UHGV virus genome: UHGV-0074437
Reading direction: 5' to 3' (one strand)
Source: a virus
Length of the DNA: 28,657 bases
Each line of letters opens with the position of its first letter. Position 1 is the stretch's first letter. The position numbers were made by a program, and so were the translations under genes. The notes beneath the pieces were generated by a model. It was not told the DNA's origin and searched no databases. It saw only the letters and a list, made by a program, of their open reading frames with translations. This document shows, in pieces, positions 8,592-27,141 of this stretch.

Positions 8592-9210
8592 CAGTGTCAC
8601 CGAAATAATGGATGCGCTGGAGCGCTACAGCGAAATCATCACCCCCTGGGCGACGAAGGTTGCTGAGAACTTTACCGCCGACATTGCGCGCCAGAATGAA
8701 AAGCAGTGGCGTCAGCACAGCAGGAACATCAGCGCAGAGCTGCGCAACATGGTCGACCGCGCCCCGGTAGGCCAGGTGATGAAATCCATCGTCGCCGAGC
8801 AAATTAAGTACATCAAGTCACTGCCTCTTGAGGCCGCCGATCGGGTGTATGACATTCAGAACAAGGCCATCGAGGCCGTTGTGTCTGGTGGCCGCGCTGA
8901 GCCATTCGCGAAAGAGATAGCTGCGTCCGGTGACGTGTCACGCTCACGAGCGAACCTTATCGCCCGTACCGAGCTTGGACGCGCAACCGGCGCGCTCGAT
9001 CAGGCGCGTGCGCTGTCAATCGGCTCGAATGGTTATATCTGGCGTACAGCCGAAGATGGCGACGTCCGGCATTCTCATCGGGAGATGGAAGGTAAGTTTG
9101 TCGAATGGGGCAAACCTCCAACGCTTGATGGCATGACCGGTCACGCTGGCGAGCTCCCGAACTGCCGCTGTTACAAAGAAATCGTTTTTAATGAAGGTGT
9201 ATTCAAATGA
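8443..9210 (+). CDS. Head morphogenesis protein (Mu F / SPP1 gp7-like)
   Basis: 255-aa ORF; C-terminal region [47 protein letters not shown] fits the Phage_Mu_F family pattern; GAGGA RBS 7 nt before the ATG at 8443. That start implies a 149-nt overlap with the portal gene; an alternative in-frame ATG at 8608 lies just past the portal stop, so the start is uncertain. Confidence 0.7.
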
Positions 9211-11273
9211 TTCGCATCAGGGTTTTTAACGCTGACTCAGACCGCTGGATCACCGTCAGGCCAAACGGGCCATACCATGAGGGACGCCCGGTAAAAATTG
9301 ATGAGAATGGAGAAATCAGGGCTGGCATGGGGGGGAAGTTCAACGGTAAGAAGATTGGGGAGATCGGGAAGGATTTTTCCGGCCCACAAAGTCCACCACA
9401 GCAGGTAATTCAGGAACGACTGAAAGAAAAAACGGTGAGGCAGGATCCTGCTGTTGCTGAAAGGCGAAAAGGTGACGAGGAACGTGCAGCAGCGGAAAAA
9501 AGGCTTCGCACCGCACTAAAAAAAGCCATCGAAGGGCAGCGTGGAAAAGAAGTACAGAATCCGCCGGAAGCACACCAGCGCTCCACGCAGCCTGAGCCCG
9601 GAAAACTTGACAGTAACGCTATGAAATCCTGGGCTTTATTGTGGAAGCGCGGAAATCCGGTGAAAACGAAAAATACTTCACTGAAACGTGCGAATGAAAC
9701 ACTTACTGCCAATGGATTTCATCCTTTACCTGATAATGTCGCCAGAATAGCAACAAACCGAATTGGTCATTCATTTGCCGCAGGCAATGGTATTGGCCTT
9801 AACGAACTGCTGTCCACCAAGGAACGGCTTTATGACATCGGTGGACGAAATTACTTAAGAGGCTTATTCACCGCTAATGAAGTGGAACAATTAACAAACG
9901 CCGGATTACTGACCCCTGTTTCCGGTGGCGGACTGTTTGATCACATCCCGACAGACAAAGGCGTTACTTTCTTTTCGTCAGTCATACATTCTCAACAGGA
10001 ACAAATGTTGAGTACCGCAAAAGGAACCCGCGACGCGGCGTATACAAAAGGCATCAGGTATTTTTTCAATACCCGGCTGGGGGAAACCCGCTATCAGCTG
10101 GCTGACGGCTCGCTGCTGTGCAAAGACGTGCCGATAGGACGAACAGGTAAGCAGCTCTATGGTGCTGATGACCTGCCAAACCTCAAACCCGACAAGCTCG
10201 GTGAGATAGTCGTCACGCGTTCTCCTGAGCAGGTATTCCATCCCGCCACGCTTGCCTCATTCGAAGGAATGAGTATCACGGTGTTGCATCCCGAGGATGA
10301 AAACGGGGATGTGCGGCTGGTGAATCCAGAGAACTGGAAAGAGCTTGCTGTCGGGCATCTTCAGAATGTCCGGCGCGGGACGGGTGTGCAGTCTGATTTG
10401 ATGCTGGCTGACCTTATCGTCAAAGACGAAAGCGCCATTCAGCTTATCGAAGATGGCCTGCGCGAAGTGTCGTGTGGCTATGACGCGGAGTACGAGCAGA
10501 CCGAGCCAGGTAAAGCCGAGCAGGTCGATATTACCGGAAACCATGTGGCTCTTGTCCCTAAAGGCAGAGCCGGAAATCGTTGTGCAATTGGAGACAGAGA
10601 CACAATGGCAAATCAAAAGAAAAGCTGGTGGACCCGCATGCGCACGGCCATCAAAACGGGTGACGCTGACACCATGAACGAACTGCTGGACTCTGCGCCA
10701 GCGGCGGTAACGGGTGATGAAGGGGATCTGCCCAGCGGCGTTAACCTCAACATTAACCTTTCACCGCAGCAACCATTGCCGGACAAAAAGCCGGAAATGG
10801 GCGGAGAGCCAACCGGCGACGGCGAGGACGATATCAAAACCTTGCTTAAAGCCCTGCTGGCTAAGCTGGAAGGAAATGCGACGGGCGATAACGACAATAA
10901 GCCTGACGATAATCCGACCGGTGACGGCGAGGACGATGAAGAGGAAACCACGATTACTGGTGACTCAGCCTGGCGTGCCGAAGTTATCGTTCCGGGTATC
11001 GATCTGAGCCGTAAGATGAAACCGACCGCGTTCAAACGCGAGGTTCTGGCTTCCGCTGACAAAACGCTGGTTCGCCAGATAGTCGGCGATGCGGATATCC
11101 GCAAATTGCCGAAACAATCGGTCAACATGGCGTTTAATGCCGTGTCAGAGATTGCCAAAGGGCGAAACACCCGCAGCACCACGGGCGATGCACAACGTCC
11201 AAATATGGGCATGACCAGCATCGCTTCCCTGAACAAACAAAACGCCGACTTCTGGTCTAACCGCAAAGGATAA
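9207..11273 (+). CDS. Large multi-domain head protein: unassigned N-terminal domain, central prohead-maturation-like domain (DUF2213-like as recalled), acidic Gly/Asp-rich scaffold-like C-terminus
   Basis: 688-aa ORF overlapping the Mu-F-like gene stop (ATGA); occupies the scaffold/protease slot between head morphogenesis and capsid genes; C-terminal repeats TGDGEDD...[10 protein letters not shown] are typical of scaffolding regions; the N-terminal ~270 aa have no motif I recognise. Confidence 0.65.
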
Positions 11274-11277
11274 TCCA

Positions 11278-11781
11278 ATGACTGCATATCTGTACCGGAT
11301 GCCTGTTGGCATTGCCGGGGCTATCTCTCGCCCGCAGGACTTAACCGTCGAACCGGTGGTCCTTAAATCCGATAACGCCTTTGCTGCCTACGGGCTGGCT
11401 GGTAAATACGATGATGACGGTTTTTTCGTGCCGCTGGAGGACGGTGACACCGCCGACAAGGTGAAGGGGATCTACGTTCGTCCGTATCCGACCACATCGC
11501 AGCCAGACATGGTTCGCCAGGTGGGGACGGATAAGAATTTCCCGGGCGACGCCATGAAACGTGGCTACATGACCGTTAACCTTGGATCTGGCTTCGATGC
11601 CAGCACCATCAAAAAAGGTGATCCTGTCTACGTGGTCGTTTCGCTCGATTCAACCATTGACGTGCCGCTGGGCGGCTTCATGTCCACGTCCGTCAGTGGC
11701 AAAAACGTGGCGCTGACCAACGCCGAATTCACAGGGGCCGGTGACGCTAACGGCAATGCAGAAATCTCCTGGAAGATTTAA
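11278..11781 (+). CDS. Putative head structural or decoration protein
   Basis: 167-aa ORF with AAAGGA RBS, located between the scaffold-like gene and the major capsid gene; function assigned from position only. Confidence 0.45.
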   Translation: MTAYLYRMPVGIAGAISRPQDLTVEPVVLKSDNAFAAYGLAGKYDDDGFFVPLEDGDTADKVKGIYVRPYPTTSQPDMVRQVGTDKNFPGDAMKRGYMTVNLGSGFDASTIKKGDPVYVVVSLDSTIDVPLGGFMSTSVSGKNVALTNAEFTGAGDANGNAEISWKI

Positions 11782-14871: not shown

Positions 14872-16032
14872 ATGGCACAGGGCTTACCTGTATCCAACGT
14901 TGTAAACGTTGATGTGATCATCTCGCCGAAAGCGGCTACTGGTCGTAACTTCGGCGCGCTGCTGATCCTCGGCTCTTCCACTGTCATTCCGGTGCAGGAA
15001 CGCATTCGCCTTTATGCGTCCGTTGAGGACATTGGCGAGGACTTCGGAGTCGACAGCCCGGAATATGAAGCGGCGCAGGTTTTCTTCAGCCAGTCACCGA
15101 AGCCGACACAGGTTTATGTTGGTCGCTGGGCGAAGACGCTGAGTTCTTCCGAGAGTGGAGATACTGAAACTATCGTGCAAGCCGTTAATGCCTGCCTGCA
15201 ATATACCAACTGGTATGGGCTGGTTGTCGCTGATGATGTTGTCGCTGGTGGCGATGTGCTTGATGCTGATGACGTGATTGAGGTCGCCAAACTTATTGAA
15301 GCGTCCAGCCTTAGCCGTATCTTTGGTGTGACCTCTGCCGACGCCGAGATTATCAGCACGACTTCGACGACCGATGTTGCGTCGAAATTAAAGGCTGGCA
15401 AGTATTCCCGTACCTTTGTTCAGTATTCCACCAGCAGCCCTTATGCGGCTGTTTCAGCTTTCGGTCGCGCGTTTACTGTCAATTTCAACGGCAGCAATAC
15501 CACCATTACCCTGAAATTCAAACAGGAACCGAGCGTAACCTACGAAACGCTGACGGTAGGACAGGCGGCGGCTGTGGATGCGAAGAATGCGAACGTGTTC
15601 GTGTACTACGCCAACGACACGGCGATCCTGCAACAGGGCGTCATGGCGAACGGTGACTTCTTCGACGAGCGCCACGGGCTCGACTGGTTGCAGAACTACG
15701 TTCAGACCAACCTCTATAACCTGCTTTACACCAGCACCACCAAAATTCCGCAGACTGATGCCGGTGTGACCCGTCTGCTTTCCAACGTTGAACAGTCCAT
15801 GGATCAGTCCGTCACGAACGGTCTGGTAGCGGCTGGCGTGTGGAATGGTGGACCTATCGGACAGCTGAATTCCGGCGATACGCTGACCAAAGGTTATTAC
15901 GTGTATGCGCAACCTCTTTCAGAACAGGCGCAGGCCGACCGAGAAGCTCGCAAAGCACCGTTAATTCAGGTGGCCTGTAAGCTGGCTGGCGCAGTTCATT
16001 ATGCCGATGTGCAGATCAACGTAGTTCGCTAA
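14872..16032 (+). CDS. Putative tail sheath protein (DUF3383-like as recalled)
   Basis: 386-aa ORF with GGAG RBS, first gene of the tail block, followed by a tube-sized gene, chaperone and tape measure: the sheath position in contractile-tail phages. Confidence 0.5.
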
Positions 16033-16042
16033 GGAGCGATAA

Positions 16043-16483
16043 ATGGCAACTTATTCTTTTCTCGATGTAACCGCGTCGCTCACCGGGCCGACCGGCGTTA
16101 TCGATCTTGGTCAGGGTTCTGCCAACTCTGAGGAAGGTATCACCCAGACCATGGGCGGCAACAAGAACACTATGACCATCGGTGCCGATGGCGAAGTGAT
16201 GCACAGCCTGCACGCCGATAAGTCAGGCACCATTACGGTGACGCTGCTGAAAACCTCCCCGGTGAACAAGAAGCTGTCTCTGGCGTATAACGCGCAAAGC
16301 CAGTCCTCTGCCACCTGGGGCAATAACGTGATCGTCATTCGCAACACGGCATCGGGTGATATTTCTACTGCGCGTTCGTGCGCATTCCAGAAACAGCCTG
16401 ATTTCAATAACGCCAAAGAGGGCGGGACTGTTTCCTGGGTGTTCGACTGCGGCAAGATTGACCAGCTGCTCGGGGAGTTTTAA
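16043..16483 (+). CDS. Putative tail tube protein
   Basis: 146-aa ORF with AAGGAG RBS directly after the sheath-like gene and before the chaperone. Confidence 0.5.
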   Translation: MATYSFLDVTASLTGPTGVIDLGQGSANSEEGITQTMGGNKNTMTIGADGEVMHSLHADKSGTITVTLLKTSPVNKKLSLAYNAQSQSSATWGNNVIVIRNTASGDISTARSCAFQKQPDFNNAKEGGTVSWVFDCGKIDQLLGEF

Positions 16484-16486
16484 CGC

Positions 16487-16912
16487 ATGGAATTCGAAAT
16501 TAAAGGCGTGAAATATCGCACCGCAAAGCTCAGCGTTTTCGAACAGCTGAAGGTGTCCCGCAAGCTGTTGCCGGTGCTGGCCGGGATGGTTTCTGACTTT
16601 CGGAGCGTTCAGGAGAAGATCAGCAGCAAAGACACCGAAGGTGCGATGGCTACCATCCTGCCAAAGATTGCCAATGCTGTGTCCGATCTGAGCGATGGCG
16701 ACGTGGACGCTATCCTGTTCCCCTGCCTTTCCGTTGTTTCACGCGAGCACATGAAAGGCTGGGTGCCGGTCTGCCAGCATGGCGAAATGGCGTTTGACGA
16801 TATCGACCTGTTGACCATGCTGCAACTGGTGGCGCGGGTGGTCGCCGACTCGCTGGGAAATTTTTTGCAAGGACTCCCTACCAGCGAGACGCCCACCCCG
16901 CCAGCGGAATAA
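16487..16912 (+). CDS. Tail assembly chaperone (short, unshifted form)
   Basis: 141-aa acidic ORF immediately upstream of the tape measure gene; contains the slippery heptamer T_TTT_TTG at 16861-16867 near its 3' end. Confidence 0.7.
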   Translation: MEFEIKGVKYRTAKLSVFEQLKVSRKLLPVLAGMVSDFRSVQEKISSKDTEGAMATILPKIANAVSDLSDGDVDAILFPCLSVVSREHMKGWVPVCQHGEMAFDDIDLLTMLQLVARVVADSLGNFLQGLPTSETPTPPAE

Positions 16913-17100
16913 CCTTCAACAGCCTGCCGGGCGGTGAAGATTTTATTCTTCGTCCGGCGCTTGCCTTCCAGATTGACCAGAAAGACCTTAACAGCGGTGC
17001 GGTAGACCTCTGCCGCATCGCGCTTCTCAATGACTACCTCGACATGCGCGAGGATAACGACGCCCGGGTAGATAAATGGAGAGCGGCCAATGAGCGGTAA
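16861..17100 (+). other. Predicted -1 programmed ribosomal frameshift extension of the tail assembly chaperone (G/GT-type long form)
   Basis: Slippery heptamer TTTTTTG in X_XXY_YYZ register at 16861-16867; the -1 frame is then open for 79 codons with no stop, from 16861 to a TAA at 17098-17100 that overlaps the tape measure start codon; the extension has no ATG of its own and therefore does not appear in the ORF track. Confidence 0.6.
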
Positions 17101-19105
17101 CGCAGATACGATTAAAGATTTCCTTGTTTCGCTGGGATTCGATATCGATCAGGCTGGCGCTAATAAGTTTGAAGCCGTGCTGAAAGGCGTTACCGCGAAC
17201 GTTCTGAAGGTCGGCGCTGTGGTGAAAGGCTCAGCGCTTAGCATTGTCGGATTTACCACCCAGATCGCGAATGGTCTGGATAAAATTTACTGGGCATCCC
17301 AGCGGACGGGGGCCAGCGTCCAGGGCATCAAAGCGCTGGGCTATGCCGCATCGCAAACCGGTGCCAGCGCCGAGTCGGCCATGTCCTCTCTTGAAGGGTT
17401 GGCTGGTTTCATGCGTAGCAATCCGGGGGCGGAAGGGTTCCTGAACCGTCTGGGCGTACAGACCCGCGATGCCAGCGGAAAGATGCGTGATACTGCGGCC
17501 ATCTTTACTGGTGTTGGGCAAAAGCTCAACAACATGCCGTATTACCGCGCGAAGCAATACGCGCAGATGCTCGGCATCGATGAAAACACGCTGATGGCGA
17601 TGCGCAGAGGGATGGGGCAGCTCAGTTCTGAGTACGCGTTGACGGCAAAGCGTATTGGTTTTAATGCTGAGTCAGCGGCTAAACAGTCCAATATTTTCAT
17701 GACCTCCATGCGTAATCTGACGATGACGCTTGGACAGGCGAAAGACAAGATTGGCTCTAACTTGGCTGGTGGACTTGCTGGCAGTATTGATAACTTCCGC
17801 AGGCAGATACTCGACAACTGGCCGAAGATTGAAGCAGTCATCACGAAGATCATCAAAGGAATTCTCTGGGCAGGTGACGCGATTACCCGCGTGTTATGGC
17901 GAACTGGGCAAGCTGTTGAGGGTGTGATCGCCTGGTTCAAAAAGCTGAACCCAGCCACGCAGCAGCTTATCGCATTGTTCAGTGGGCTGTTGGTTGCATG
18001 GCGGCTGCTAAATACCGCTTTCATGTCATCACCCTTGGGCATGATAACCACGCTTATTATTGCGCTTGGTCTGCTCTGGGATGATTACCAGACGTGGAAA
18101 GAAGGCGGCAAAAGCCTGATTGACTGGGGGAAATGGAAAACTGAAATTGATCAGGCCGTCAAAATGATTGGCGACCTGAAAAAGACTGTTACGGATCTGA
18201 CAAAAGCGCTGGCTAAGTTGCTCGGTATCGACCCCAAGTCATGGTCCCTAAAGTGGGATTTTAGCAACTTCATTTCGCAAATGGGTGAGTTCGGCAAGAT
18301 GCTGAACATGATCGCTGATTTGCTGAATGCCATAAAAGATGGCAACTGGGCGCAGGCCGCTAGTATAGGCAAACAGCTGCTAAATCAGGGCAGCGAAAAT
18401 CCGTCAGCGATGCCGATGGTAACAGACAGCGCCAACGGTACCGCCGACTGGATTAAAGAGCACTGGGGATTCGATCCTCGCAGCGTGGGCCGAACGGTGC
18501 GCGGCTGGTTCGGTGATGATGAGCCTGAACAGCTCGGCCAGTCAGTTAAGCGGCCACAGCCAACCAAAGCAGGCTCTGAACTGCTGGGATGGATGCAGCC
18601 GATGTTTACCAACCTGGAACAGCTCTACCGGCTTCCGGAGGGGTTATTGCGCAGCGTGGCCATAACGGAATCGGGCGGTAATCAGTTCGCCGTTTCAGGC
18701 GCTGGCGCGAAAGGTCTGTTTCAGTTTATGGATGGCACGGCGCGCGACATGGGCCTGCGTGGCAATGATGTATTCGACCCGGAAAAGTCAGCTCAGGCAG
18801 CCGCTAAGTACCTCAGCCAGCTGTTGCGGCAGAACGGCGGAGACCTTAGCAAAGCACTGGCATCATATAACTGGGGGATCGGGAATGTTAAGCGTTATGG
18901 AATGGGGCTAATGCCGCAGGAAACGCGCAACTACATTCCGAAAGTAATGAGCAATATGCCCACCAGCGCCCCGGTGATTCAGCAGGAAACGAATATTAAC
19001 ATCCACGGTGTTTCCGATCCGCGTGAAGCTGCCCGTTTGACTGTTGACCGTCAAAAGGGCGTGAATTCACAGTTAACCCAGCAACTCCCCGCAGGACCGA
19101 GATAA
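17090..19105 (+). CDS. Tail tape measure protein with a C-terminal lytic transglycosylase (SLT) domain
   Basis: 671-aa ORF after the chaperone/frameshift; hydrophobic central segments; C-terminal motif LLRSVAITESGGNQFAVSGAGAKGLFQFMDGTARDMG...ALASYNWGIGNV with the catalytic-type ES pattern of family-1 lytic transglycosylases. Confidence 0.85.
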   Translation: MSGNADTIKDFLVSLGFDIDQAGANKFEAVLKGVTANVLKVGAVVKGSALSIVGFTTQIANGLDKIYWASQRTGASVQGIKALGYAASQTGASAESAMSSLEGLAGFMRSNPGAEGFLNRLGVQTRDASGKMRDTAAIFTGVGQKLNNMPYYRAKQYAQMLGIDENTLMAMRRGMGQLSSEYALTAKRIGFNAESAAKQSNIFMTSMRNLTMTLGQAKDKIGSNLAGGLAGSIDNFRRQILDNWPKIEAVITKIIKGILWAGDAITRVLWRTGQAVEGVIAWFKKLNPATQQLIALFSGLLVAWRLLNTAFMSSPLGMITTLIIALGLLWDDYQTWKEGGKSLIDWGKWKTEIDQAVKMIGDLKKTVTDLTKALAKLLGIDPKSWSLKWDFSNFISQMGEFGKMLNMIADLLNAIKDGNWAQAASIGKQLLNQGSENPSAMPMVTDSANGTADWIKEHWGFDPRSVGRTVRGWFGDDEPEQLGQSVKRPQPTKAGSELLGWMQPMFTNLEQLYRLPEGLLRSVAITESGGNQFAVSGAGAKGLFQFMDGTARDMGLRGNDVFDPEKSAQAAAKYLSQLLRQNGGDLSKALASYNWGIGNVKRYGMGLMPQETRNYIPKVMSNMPTSAPVIQQETNINIHGVSDPREAARLTVDRQKGVNSQLTQQLPAGPR

Positions 19106-25977: not shown

Positions 25978-27141
25978 CTATCTGGCTTGAGATATTGAAA
26001 TAGATTTTGTTTTCCGCCCATACATCAAACGGCTAAGCGATATAGATGGGTTATCTATAAGCTTTGTAAATAAATGTGCTATTATTATGCTTGTGGGAAT
26101 CGTAAACACCCATACATAAATTGGGCTGTATTTATATAGTAAAAGTAACCCTATAGAAAGAATTGTATAATGTATAAGGTATAGCGAGAAAGATATTCTC
26201 CCAAGATAAAGACCAACAGACAGGAACTTACCCTCTTTTAATTTAAGTGAGCACACGATTAATCCAACGGCACCGATAGATGTCACAATATCACCAAGAC
26301 CTCTGTGTGATAAAGTCCATCCATTATTAAATGGGTAGCAATACAGCATTAAAGAAATTATCACCAGCAGGAATATGATTTTCTTGTCTATATTATTCAT
26401 TATTTCATTAGTTCTTTTCACATTTAAAGCAAGGTATGCACCAATTGTAAAAAATAACGAGTAATGAACTGTTAACAGGCTTGAGCTTAGGGGGTCTATA
26501 CCGTATAGATGCGGTTTAGAGTTCATGATAAATATACTAAGCATCGATGCCAACAAGGATAGCAGCACAAAGCGAAAGCCAAGTTTTTTCGTAAAGTACA
26601 GAATTAAAGGAAACGCTATCGAAATTCTAGCCTCGTAAACTAAGGACCATGCTGGAGGGTTTATTTCGAAGTAATTGTAAAACCCCAGCATGCCAATGTG
26701 ATTAACTATTGTTGCTAGATTGAAGTCTGGTTTTGCTACGCCCATCCATCCTTTTTCCCAGGAAAAACCACTTGATTTCATGACTGCAAAGACAATAGCC
26801 ACAAATAATAATGATGCAATGAATGGAATGTATAGGCGAGCTACCCTGGCTAACAGATATCTAAACATATTAAATGGATTTGCTGAGTTGATCATCATTG
26901 TTAAAGCAAACCCACTCAACACAAAGAAAACAATAACAGCTTGATGTCCAGCCCACAGAAAGCGAAATGGTGACCATTCAAGATACGGCCAGATAGTGGG
27001 GTTGTTATATAATCCAGCAACGGTTGTGTGAGCAAGCAAAACCGTTAGAGCAGCATAACCCCTAACTGCATCAAGAGATGGGATTCGTTTTGTATCTTTC
27101 ATTACTATTCTCATTTTAGTTTGTTGAGTCAATACTAACAT
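25978..27141 (-). CDS. Acyltransferase family 3 integral membrane protein (putative O-antigen / LPS O-acetyltransferase, lysogenic-conversion type)
   Basis: Minus-strand ORF with about 10 predicted transmembrane segments; N-terminal region KRIPSLDAVRGYAALTVLLAHT...FFVLSGFALT matches the acyltransferase_3 (OafA/Oac-type) signature; strongly AT-rich. Three candidate in-frame ATG starts (27141, 27114, 27102); the third gives MKDTKRIP, the usual N-terminus for this family. Confidence 0.8.
   Translation of the reverse strand: MLVLTQQTKMRIVMKDTKRIPSLDAVRGYAALTVLLAHTTVAGLYNNPTIWPYLEWSPFRFLWAGHQAVIVFFVLSGFALTMMINSANPFNMFRYLLARVARLYIPFIASLLFVAIVFAVMKSSGFSWEKGWMGVAKPDFNLATIVNHIGMLGFYNYFEINPPAWSLVYEARISIAFPLILYFTKKLGFRFVLLSLLASMLSIFIMNSKPHLYGIDPLSSSLLTVHYSLFFTIGAYLALNVKRTNEIMNNIDKKIIFLLVIISLMLYCYPFNNGWTLSHRGLGDIVTSIGAVGLIVCSLKLKEGKFLSVGLYLGRISFSLYLIHYTILSIGLLLLYKYSPIYVWVFTIPTSIIIAHLFTKLIDNPSISLSRLMYGRKTKSISISQAR

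Follow-up and report, generated by a model that had tools for sequence, protein, structure and literature searches.

A probable G/GT-type -1 frameshift at tandem slippery heptamers in the gene for the tail assembly chaperone in a contractile-tailed enterobacterial phage

The viral genome UHGV-0074437 (28,657 nucleotides (nt), analysed over its whole length and referred to here as the window) carries a tail assembly chaperone gene whose 3' end overlaps a second, -1 open reading frame (ORF). Comparison of this locus with its relatives makes it highly probable that a chaperone fusion protein is produced by -1 ribosomal frameshifting within positions 16855-16867, in an arrangement of the G/GT type. 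Most ribosomes would read 16487-16912 and terminate, yielding a 141-amino-acid (aa) chaperone, the 'G' product. A minority would slip back one base on the run G_GGA_AAU_UUU_UUG, with the Phe codon at 16862-16864 as pivot, and would read on in the -1 frame to the TAA at 17098-17100. The C-terminal 77-78 residues of the resulting 204-aa fusion would consist of a linker and a small DUF6889 module. If lambda gpG/gpGT and P2 E/E+E' are a guide, the shared N-terminal part is expected to coat the tape measure protein and the frameshift-only C-terminal ('T') part to recruit the tube protein, the frequency of slippage setting the G:GT ratio needed for tail assembly. The element that carries the locus would be a contractile-tailed temperate phage or prophage of Enterobacterales.

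The slippery run and the -1 reading frame

The frame-0 ORF is recognised as a tail assembly chaperone by both Pfam and PHROG. It matches Phage_TAC_15 (PF21822) with E=4.4e-33 and a score of 114.9 bits, the cut-off being 22, with residues 6-128 aligning to profile positions 1-121 of 127, and it matches phrog_1688, 'tail assembly chaperone', with E=3e-57. Towards its end, frame 0 reads CTG GGA AAT TTT TTG CAA (16853-16870). A preliminary description of this DNA had placed a slippery heptamer, T_TTT_TTG, at 16861-16867, 15 codons before the chaperone stop; the sequence and the frame of the ORF agree with this placement, the heptamer lying in the X_XXY_YYZ register with TTG as codon 127. That description treated the heptamer as a single site, however, and although it is indeed in phase, it is only one of three overlapping heptamers in the 13-nt run GGGAAATTTTTTG (see the table), with the X_XXT_TTT that is conserved throughout the family one codon upstream.

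Both frames are open from 16798 to 16909, an interval that contains all three in-phase heptamers, and the -1 frame continues to the TAA at 17098-17100. Counted from 16861, it comprises 79 sense codons followed by the stop (FFARTPYQRDAHPASGITFNSLPGGEDF...KWRAANER), as had been stated earlier, and the +1 frame stops eight codons beyond the frame-0 stop. The earlier statement that the TAA overlaps the tape measure ATG needs correction, since the TAA lies six bases after that ATG (17090-17092). The overlap is instead one of ORFs: the -1 ORF and the tape measure ORF share 11 nt, and the ribosome binding site (RBS) and ATG of the tape measure gene are embedded in the final codons of the -1 ORF (KWRAANER), an overlap also found in the relatives. 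In-phase X_XXY_YYZ heptamers make up 0.33% of the codons in the genes of the window (23 of 7038, the three of the slippery run included), and 1.8% of -1 frame positions inside genes lie in off-frame stretches open for at least 62 codons. Given how infrequent both features are, their arrangement at the slip site is more than chance. Elsewhere in the window, in-phase heptamers also occur in structural genes, at 9329, 9518 and 10061 (ORF 9207-11273, DUF2213) and at 11421 (ORF 11278-11781); they comprise G_GGG_GGG, A_AAA_AAA and, twice, T_TTT_TTC.

The -1 peptide belongs to a protein family of its own. It scored 44.5 bits against DUF6889 (PF21829; gathering cut-off 23.9, E=1.3e-11), residues 40-75 aligning to profile positions 3-38 of 40, and E=3e-17 against phrog_4364, the function of which is not assigned in PHROG. 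In the predicted structure of the 79-aa peptide, modelled with 13 homologues, residues 1-29 are disordered and residues 47-77 form one long helix; the linker of the T part is probably flexible. A sequence search of solved structures gave no significant match, and NCBIfam contains no model matching either part of the fusion.

The -1 frame offers no ATG, GTG or TTG until 17 codons before its end, and the ORF listing contains no plus-strand ORF of at least 30 aa in 16913-17089. Together with the selection on the -1 frame described below, this bears out the earlier proposal that the apparently non-coding 177-nt gap between 16912 and 17090 is explained by -1 coding. No promoter, terminator or Rfam match was found in 16913-17089. 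A 50-aa, TTG-started ORF on the minus strand (16878-17030) overlaps the gap; it is most likely spurious, the codon phase of substitutions fitting the plus-strand -1 frame.

Slippage at A_AAU_UUU would give the fusion join(16487..16864,16864..17100), reading ...LGNFFART..., and slippage at U_UUU_UUG the fusion join(16487..16867,16867..17100), reading ...LGNFLART... Both models are 204 aa long and differ by one residue (...GNFFAR... vs. ...GNFLAR...). The predicted tryptic junction peptide is VVADSLGNFFAR for slippage at A_AAU_UUU or G_GGA_AAU, or for a transcriptional U insertion, and VVADSLGNFLAR for slippage at U_UUU_UUG, while the predicted frame-0 C-terminal peptide of the chaperone is VVADSLGNFLQGLPTSETPTPPAE.

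Conservation and selection at the frame switch

To follow selection along the locus, we determined the codon phase of variable sites among 62 distinct close relatives (92-100% identical). In the body of the chaperone gene, these sites fall on frame-0 codon positions 1/2/3 in the numbers 13/14/67, and in 16913-17097 on -1 codon positions in the numbers 8/5/33. The stretch between the slippery run and the chaperone stop (16868-16909) already follows the -1 frame, with 1/1/7 variable sites in that frame, equivalent to 1/7/1 in frame 0; the probability of seven of nine sites lying at -1 third positions is about 0.008 (binomial). The last variable site in frame-0 phase is at 16855 and the first in -1 phase at 16875, upstream of the frame-0 stop. 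These data show that the frame under purifying selection changes from 0 to -1 precisely at the slippery run and, since selection acts on the -1 frame before the chaperone stop is reached, that the -1 frame is decoded from the run onward. An Arg encoded in the -1 frame by 16870-16872, three codons after the Phe, is present in 123 of 126 distinct contexts and is spelled AGG, CGC, CGT, AGA, CGG or CGA; frame 0 varies between G, A, V and E at the same place. Some relatives have stops in the -1 frame just upstream of the Phe codon.

The arrangement is widespread. For the locus search, the chaperone alignment of 15 sequences, too divergent as a whole, was divided into two sub-alignments; 135 further loci were examined, 55 from a one-genome-per-species scan and 80 from viral contigs. 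A hidden Markov model of the T part matched the -1 frame alone in 133 of them, the chaperone gene being broken in the other two. The median extension past the frame-0 stop was 62 codons, ending at the tape measure start, and in 21 loci checked by hand the -1 frame always ran 55-75 codons past that stop, to the same end point. A tblastn search with the modelled 204-aa fusion hit its two halves separately, each in a frame of its own, in 37 phage records (Klebsiella, Hafnia, Salmonella, Yersinia, Bordetella, Ralstonia, Burkholderia and Acinetobacter phages, among others). Close to home, Citrobacter phage Omnitron shares 98.5% DNA identity with positions 16043-17400, and of 5426 complete E. coli genomes, 37 contain prophages with up to 99.2% identity to this stretch. 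The gene order, the DUF6889 domain, the 133 loci and the switch in selection agree with the assignment of the locus to the G/GT arrangement of long-tailed phages made in the preliminary description, and the T domain in the 133 loci agrees with its expectation that relatives keep the -1 frame free of stops; the exceptions, considered below, look decayed.

A census of 127 distinct slip-site contexts across the chaperone family revealed the constraint on the site itself. The Phe is always encoded by TTT (127 of 127) and never by TTC, and the codon before it is NNT in all 127 (AAT in 63 of 63, and CCT for all 48 Pro codons). An invariant TTT preceded by NNT makes U_UUU invariant throughout the family. 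Synonymous constraint extends to the neighbouring codons of the slip site, with GGA in 61 of 63 cases and TTG for all 50 Leu codons at the +1 position. The slippery run is identical across the enteric relatives shown, with variable flanking codons, and in 80 close viral contigs the 13 nt are invariant except for one change at 16855 (CTG to CTT).

A different way to express the -1 ORF would be as an independent small gene encoding DUF6889, translated from a non-canonical start, for instance the ATA at 16909, through re-initiation or coupling, with no frameshift involved. This is how databases present it. RefSeq (PGAP) annotates exactly window positions 16909-17100 as a separate 'DUF6889 family protein' in E. 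coli I3 (NZ_CP195969; locus L101, 1367-1558), a call that depends on an ATA start lying across the chaperone stop. In phage records, the gap is either blank or filled with short standalone ORFs with differing starts, one of them named 'NTP pyrophosphohydrolase', and each of the 24 homologues of the -1 peptide in the databases is annotated as a gene by itself (46-119 aa, with 46-75 aa in 21 cases). The position of the N-terminus varies among them, however (46, 49, 51, 58, 61, 63, 68 and 75 aa), with names that include 'lytic transglycosylase', and the lack of a conventional start over most of the -1 frame speaks against such a gene. Moreover, purifying selection on the -1 frame sets in immediately behind the slippery run, ahead of the chaperone stop, so an ORF starting at or after 16909 cannot account for the data, and the invariant T_TTT with its synonymous constraint would be left without a role. 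We therefore consider an independent gene very improbable; the standalone calls are probably annotation artefacts of an unrecognised frameshift.

Two records do carry a joined 'tape measure chaperone frameshift product', those of Klebsiella phage Mulock (MN098327, QFG06717.1) and Burkholderia phage Magia (MT701587, QPB08698.1), both from one annotation group. Our model of the Magia fusion, with the slip at C_CCT_TTT (homologous to the A_AAT_TTT position), exactly equals the deposited QPB08698.1, and an exact-match look-up of eight candidate Mulock fusion sequences found none. A literature search found no paper mentioning DUF6889 or phage Mulock.

Downstream structure and the operative heptamer

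The preliminary description had also suggested looking, by folding, for a stimulatory structure downstream of the heptamer; none was found in the window, and one is present in distant relatives. Non-enteric relatives carry a GC-rich hairpin of 8-10 bp (GGGCUGCU-N13-AGCAGCCC or variants) exactly 6 nt after X_XXU_UUU. Five of these hairpins have folding energies of -13 to -21 kcal/mol over 42-52 nt (z -1.5 to -2.6). A covariance model (R1) consisting of the heptamer, the 6-nt spacer and the hairpin matched the slip site in 86 of 91 non-enteric sources and in three loci from Pseudomonadota metagenome-assembled genomes, with no match in 62 Enterobacterales loci. In the ungapped non-enteric alignment, 87% of cells pair, compared with 19-48% when the partner is slid. 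RNAalifold returned no structure from this alignment because the 3' arms lie in shifted registers, and it was replaced by the count for the named structure and by the covariance-model alignment. Covariation is limited to essentially one pair (G:C 28, C:G 5, A:U 2, G:U 1) because the stem is doubly coding.

The hairpin-bearing relatives also bear on the possibility that the extra base arises in transcription, RNA polymerase adding one U on T6 (U6 to U7) in a fraction of the mRNAs to give ...GNFFAR... The window does have a homopolymeric T6 at 16861-16866, although six T are generally held to be a short run for E. coli RNA polymerase to slip on efficiently, and the protein made would be the same as after slippage at A_AAU_UUU. 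The avoidance of U7/A7 runs in genes, possibly owing to slippage (Sharma et al., PMC4066793), lends the idea some credit. About half of the family, however, keeps the two-frame arrangement with only T4 (CCT TTT ATH), and it is these T4 relatives that carry the hairpin, whose spacing of 6 nt from the heptamer is classical for a ribosomal stimulator. The in-phase NNT_TTT constraint is likewise a ribosomal and not a polymerase feature. As the source of the fusion, transcriptional slippage thus seems scarcely plausible, though on T6 it could be a minor contributor in the window.

For a frameshift on the ribosome, the question is which heptamer is used. At the Phe position, the family has mostly A_AAT_TTT or C_CCT_TTT, about 30 loci having relaxed forms (G_CCT_TTT, T_TCT_TTT and similar), and T_TTT_TTG is present in 56 of the 127 contexts. 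In the E. coli reporter of Sharma et al. (2014, Table S3, PMC4066793), A_AAU_UUU gave 0.070% frameshifting without a stimulator and 11.4% with the IS3 pseudoknot. The corresponding values were 0.21% and 11.7% for C_CCU_UUU, 0.118% and 0.77% for U_UUU_UUG, and 0.069% and 1.05% for G_GGA_AAU, with backgrounds of about 0.055% and 0.069%, respectively. The best -1 motifs in that study are those that allow cognate re-pairing in the A site (PMC4066793).

For the clade with the hairpin, X_XXU_UUU must be the heptamer that operates. In the clade of the window, the sequence leaves two candidate registers, A_AAU_UUU at the ancestral position and U_UUU_UUG, a clade-specific addition that has the highest value of the three window heptamers without a stimulator. 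T_TTT_TTG is a good candidate for the operative register in the window, because T_TTT_TTN is always present in the hairpin-less enteric clade and because the heptamer equals the P2 E/E+E' site. Across the family, a hairpin is associated with ATN as the codon following Phe and the lack of one with TTN, which creates U_UUU_UUN; this contrast is a split between clades and so represents few independent events.

Several observations weigh against a functional frameshift in the window. For the window phage and its close relatives, the support for a fusion is comparative throughout. The 42 nt after the Phe codon and after TTG fold with -4.5 and -5.9 kcal/mol, respectively (z > 0), an alignment fold of nine enteric relatives showed no common structure downstream, and the hairpin covariance model, run with filters off at E<=10, had no match at the window slip site. 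Without a stimulator, the three window heptamers gave 0.07-0.12% in the reporter against a background of about 0.055% (PMC4066793). As these bare-heptamer values are near background, the efficiency of frameshifting in the window may be low, or may depend on context not visible in the sequence. The predicted structure of the -1 peptide is poor, with a mean predicted local distance difference test score of 55, and loci L118, L136 and L143 have indels or stops in the T region, though they look like decaying prophages and not like functional exceptions.

The missing stimulator, the low reporter values and the degraded T region of some relatives would also fit a relic, in which the 141-aa chaperone alone is functional and the open -1 frame and the heptamers of this prophage are vestiges or chance features. 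This is contradicted by the ongoing purifying selection on the -1 frame (8/5/33 among the 62 relatives), by the near-invariance of the 13-nt run in the close viral contigs and by an arrangement that is intact in the 37 E. coli genomes and in the isolated phage Omnitron, and we give it very little credence.

Other sequence features around the slip site were also considered. A fold of 16868-16950 gave no structure signal (z = -0.01). Inspection by eye for an upstream Shine-Dalgarno-like element in the window revealed only a weak GGGTGG about 15 nt upstream. A hairpin pairing 16849-16856 with 16881-16888 appeared in a fold of 16830-17000 and has the slip site in its loop; it was rejected as a stimulator because it is not conserved in relatives and because the ribosome would be covering its 5' arm when slippage occurs. 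Its arms form the inverted repeat CTCGCTGG / CCAGCGAG, extended by the outer arms GGCGCGGGTGG / CCCACCCCGCC (about 16830-16847 and 16890-16903), with the slippery run in the 24-nt loop. The repeat is not kept in relatives such as L085 and L086 and is probably incidental. As to the damaged loci, the affected part of the T region or chaperone lies at about 1560-1800 in L118, 1540-1870 in L136 and 1540-1800 in L143, and damage was also seen in L140 and L153; these loci come from Enterobacter sp. R1, Izhakiella, Arsenophonus and Apirhabdus.

We tentatively propose, at somewhat less than even confidence, that one chaperone family (Phage_TAC_15 + DUF6889) uses two architectures of frameshift signal. 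Burkholderia, Acinetobacter and other non-enteric members would rely on a hairpin and a single X_XXU_UUU, and members from Enterobacterales on two or three overlapping heptamers ending in U_UUU_UUN, with no hairpin. If this is true, the window is a natural case in which the G:GT ratio is maintained by trading slipperiness against a stimulator, and DUF6889/phrog_4364 would never be free-standing but always a frameshift-only T domain.

Genomic setting and comparison with known systems

The coordinates of the features are collected in the table. The two overlapping ORFs lie between the tube gene and the tape measure gene, and the genes 3' of the tape measure gene encode Dit-like, Pam3_gp18 plug and E217_gp41 hub proteins (Pfam). 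Further from the chaperone gene there are matches to portal, major capsid, neck terminator, Baseplate_J and spike N-terminal domains; this gene set is the structural module of a contractile-tailed phage. Directly after the tail fibre genes, on the minus strand, 25978-27141 encodes a 387-aa acyltransferase (Acyl_transf_3), typical of a lysogenic-conversion moron that modifies surface polysaccharide.

Table. Positions of the chaperone locus and its signals in the window, and of hairpin examples in related loci
Feature	Position	Strand	Evidence or remark
Sheath-like protein, DUF3383	14872-16032		Pfam
Tube protein, KPP10_Orf10 (DUF3277 in RefSeq)	16043-16483		Pfam
Tail assembly chaperone ORF, frame 0, 141 aa, 'G' product	16487..16912	+	Pfam Phage_TAC_15, phrog_1688
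Slippery run: G_GGA_AAT 16855-61, A_AAT_TTT 16858-64, T_TTT_TTG 16861-67	16855..16867	+	Three overlapping in-phase heptamers
Pivot Phe codon TTT, preceded by T	16862..16864	+	U_UUU, sole family-wide invariant element
-1 extension, candidate 'T' part: linker then DUF6889 domain, ending at TAA 17098-17100	16864..17100	+	Pfam, PHROG, selection
Apparent intergenic gap, 177 nt, coding in -1 frame	16913..17089	+	Codon-phase selection
Tape measure RBS GGAGAG (17078-17083) and ATG (17090-17092)	17078..17092	+	Sequence
Tape measure ORF with C-terminal SLT domain and weak PhageMin_Tail match	17090..19105	+	Pfam
Hairpin examples in non-enteric relatives	L003 1722-1766 (Burkholderia phage Magia); L094 1878-1922; L192 1638-1682; L095 1908-1959		About 85 other loci

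A frameshift of this kind is textbook and ordinary, homologues have already been so annotated, and knowledge of how tails are built is unchanged. The modest gain is that DUF6889/PHROG 4364 can be read as a frameshift-only C-terminal domain of Phage_TAC_15 chaperones, and that two signal architectures are described within one family. Automatic annotation still splits such frameshifted chaperones into two genes. The ATA-started 'DUF6889 family protein' coding sequence (CDS) in RefSeq should become a joined CDS, and the labels 'lytic transglycosylase' and 'NTP pyrophosphohydrolase' on the small ORF should likewise be replaced. For recoding biology, the family forms a comparative series in which the same proteins are preceded by a hairpin and one heptamer or by tandem heptamers and no hairpin, and which could be used to test how frameshift efficiency stays constant.

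The G-T frameshift is described in PMC5009743 as widely conserved. In lambda, according to the work cited there (Levin, Hendrix & Casjens 1993; Xu, Hendrix & Duda 2004, 2013, 2014), the part shared by gpG and gpGT sits on the tape measure protein, and recruitment of the tube protein falls to the T part. On that account, the window locus resembles lambda in its location between the major tail (tube) gene and the tape measure gene, in a second ORF that has no start of its own and ends at the tape measure start, and in not requiring a downstream structure; its G_GGA_AAU is one base away from lambda's G_GGA_AAG. It differs in having no detectable sequence homology, its families being Phage_TAC_15 and DUF6889, in belonging to a contractile-tailed phage, and in having a Phe codon as the conserved pivot. 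The A-site codon AAU in the window is also far weaker than AAG in lambda (1.05% vs. 43% with the IS3 pseudoknot; PMC4066793).

The E/E+E' pair of P2, reported to slip at TTTTTTG without a hairpin (Christie et al. 2002, as cited in PMC3091744), is close in several respects. As described there, P2 too is a contractile-tailed temperate enterobacterial phage with an identical T_TTT_TTG, no downstream hairpin and an extension that overlaps the start of the tape measure gene (P2 gene T). Unlike in P2, T_TTT_TTG in the window is preceded by two more in-phase heptamers, and this register is missing from distant homologues of the window chaperone. A Pfam scan (E<=0.01) found only Phage_TAC_15 in the chaperone and only DUF6889 in the extension; with no other chaperone family detected, the window chaperone is, by that test, which did not set it directly against the P2 protein sequence, not a homologue of gpE.

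The dnaX, IS911 and IS3 sites (Sharma et al. 2014, PMC4066793) follow the same X_XXZ_ZZN logic of tandem slippage, but in the window no upstream Shine-Dalgarno-like element, downstream hairpin or pseudoknot was identified. The window fusion would be longer than the frame-0 product, as in the insertion sequences and unlike in dnaX.

True homologues are found in phages Mulock and Magia, with 56% and 37% identity, respectively, to the modelled fusion and the same gene order, their frameshift annotations being predictions. Magia has a single heptamer and a hairpin 6 nt downstream, unlike the hairpin-less window, while Mulock carries the identical 13-nt run GGGAAATTTTTTG.

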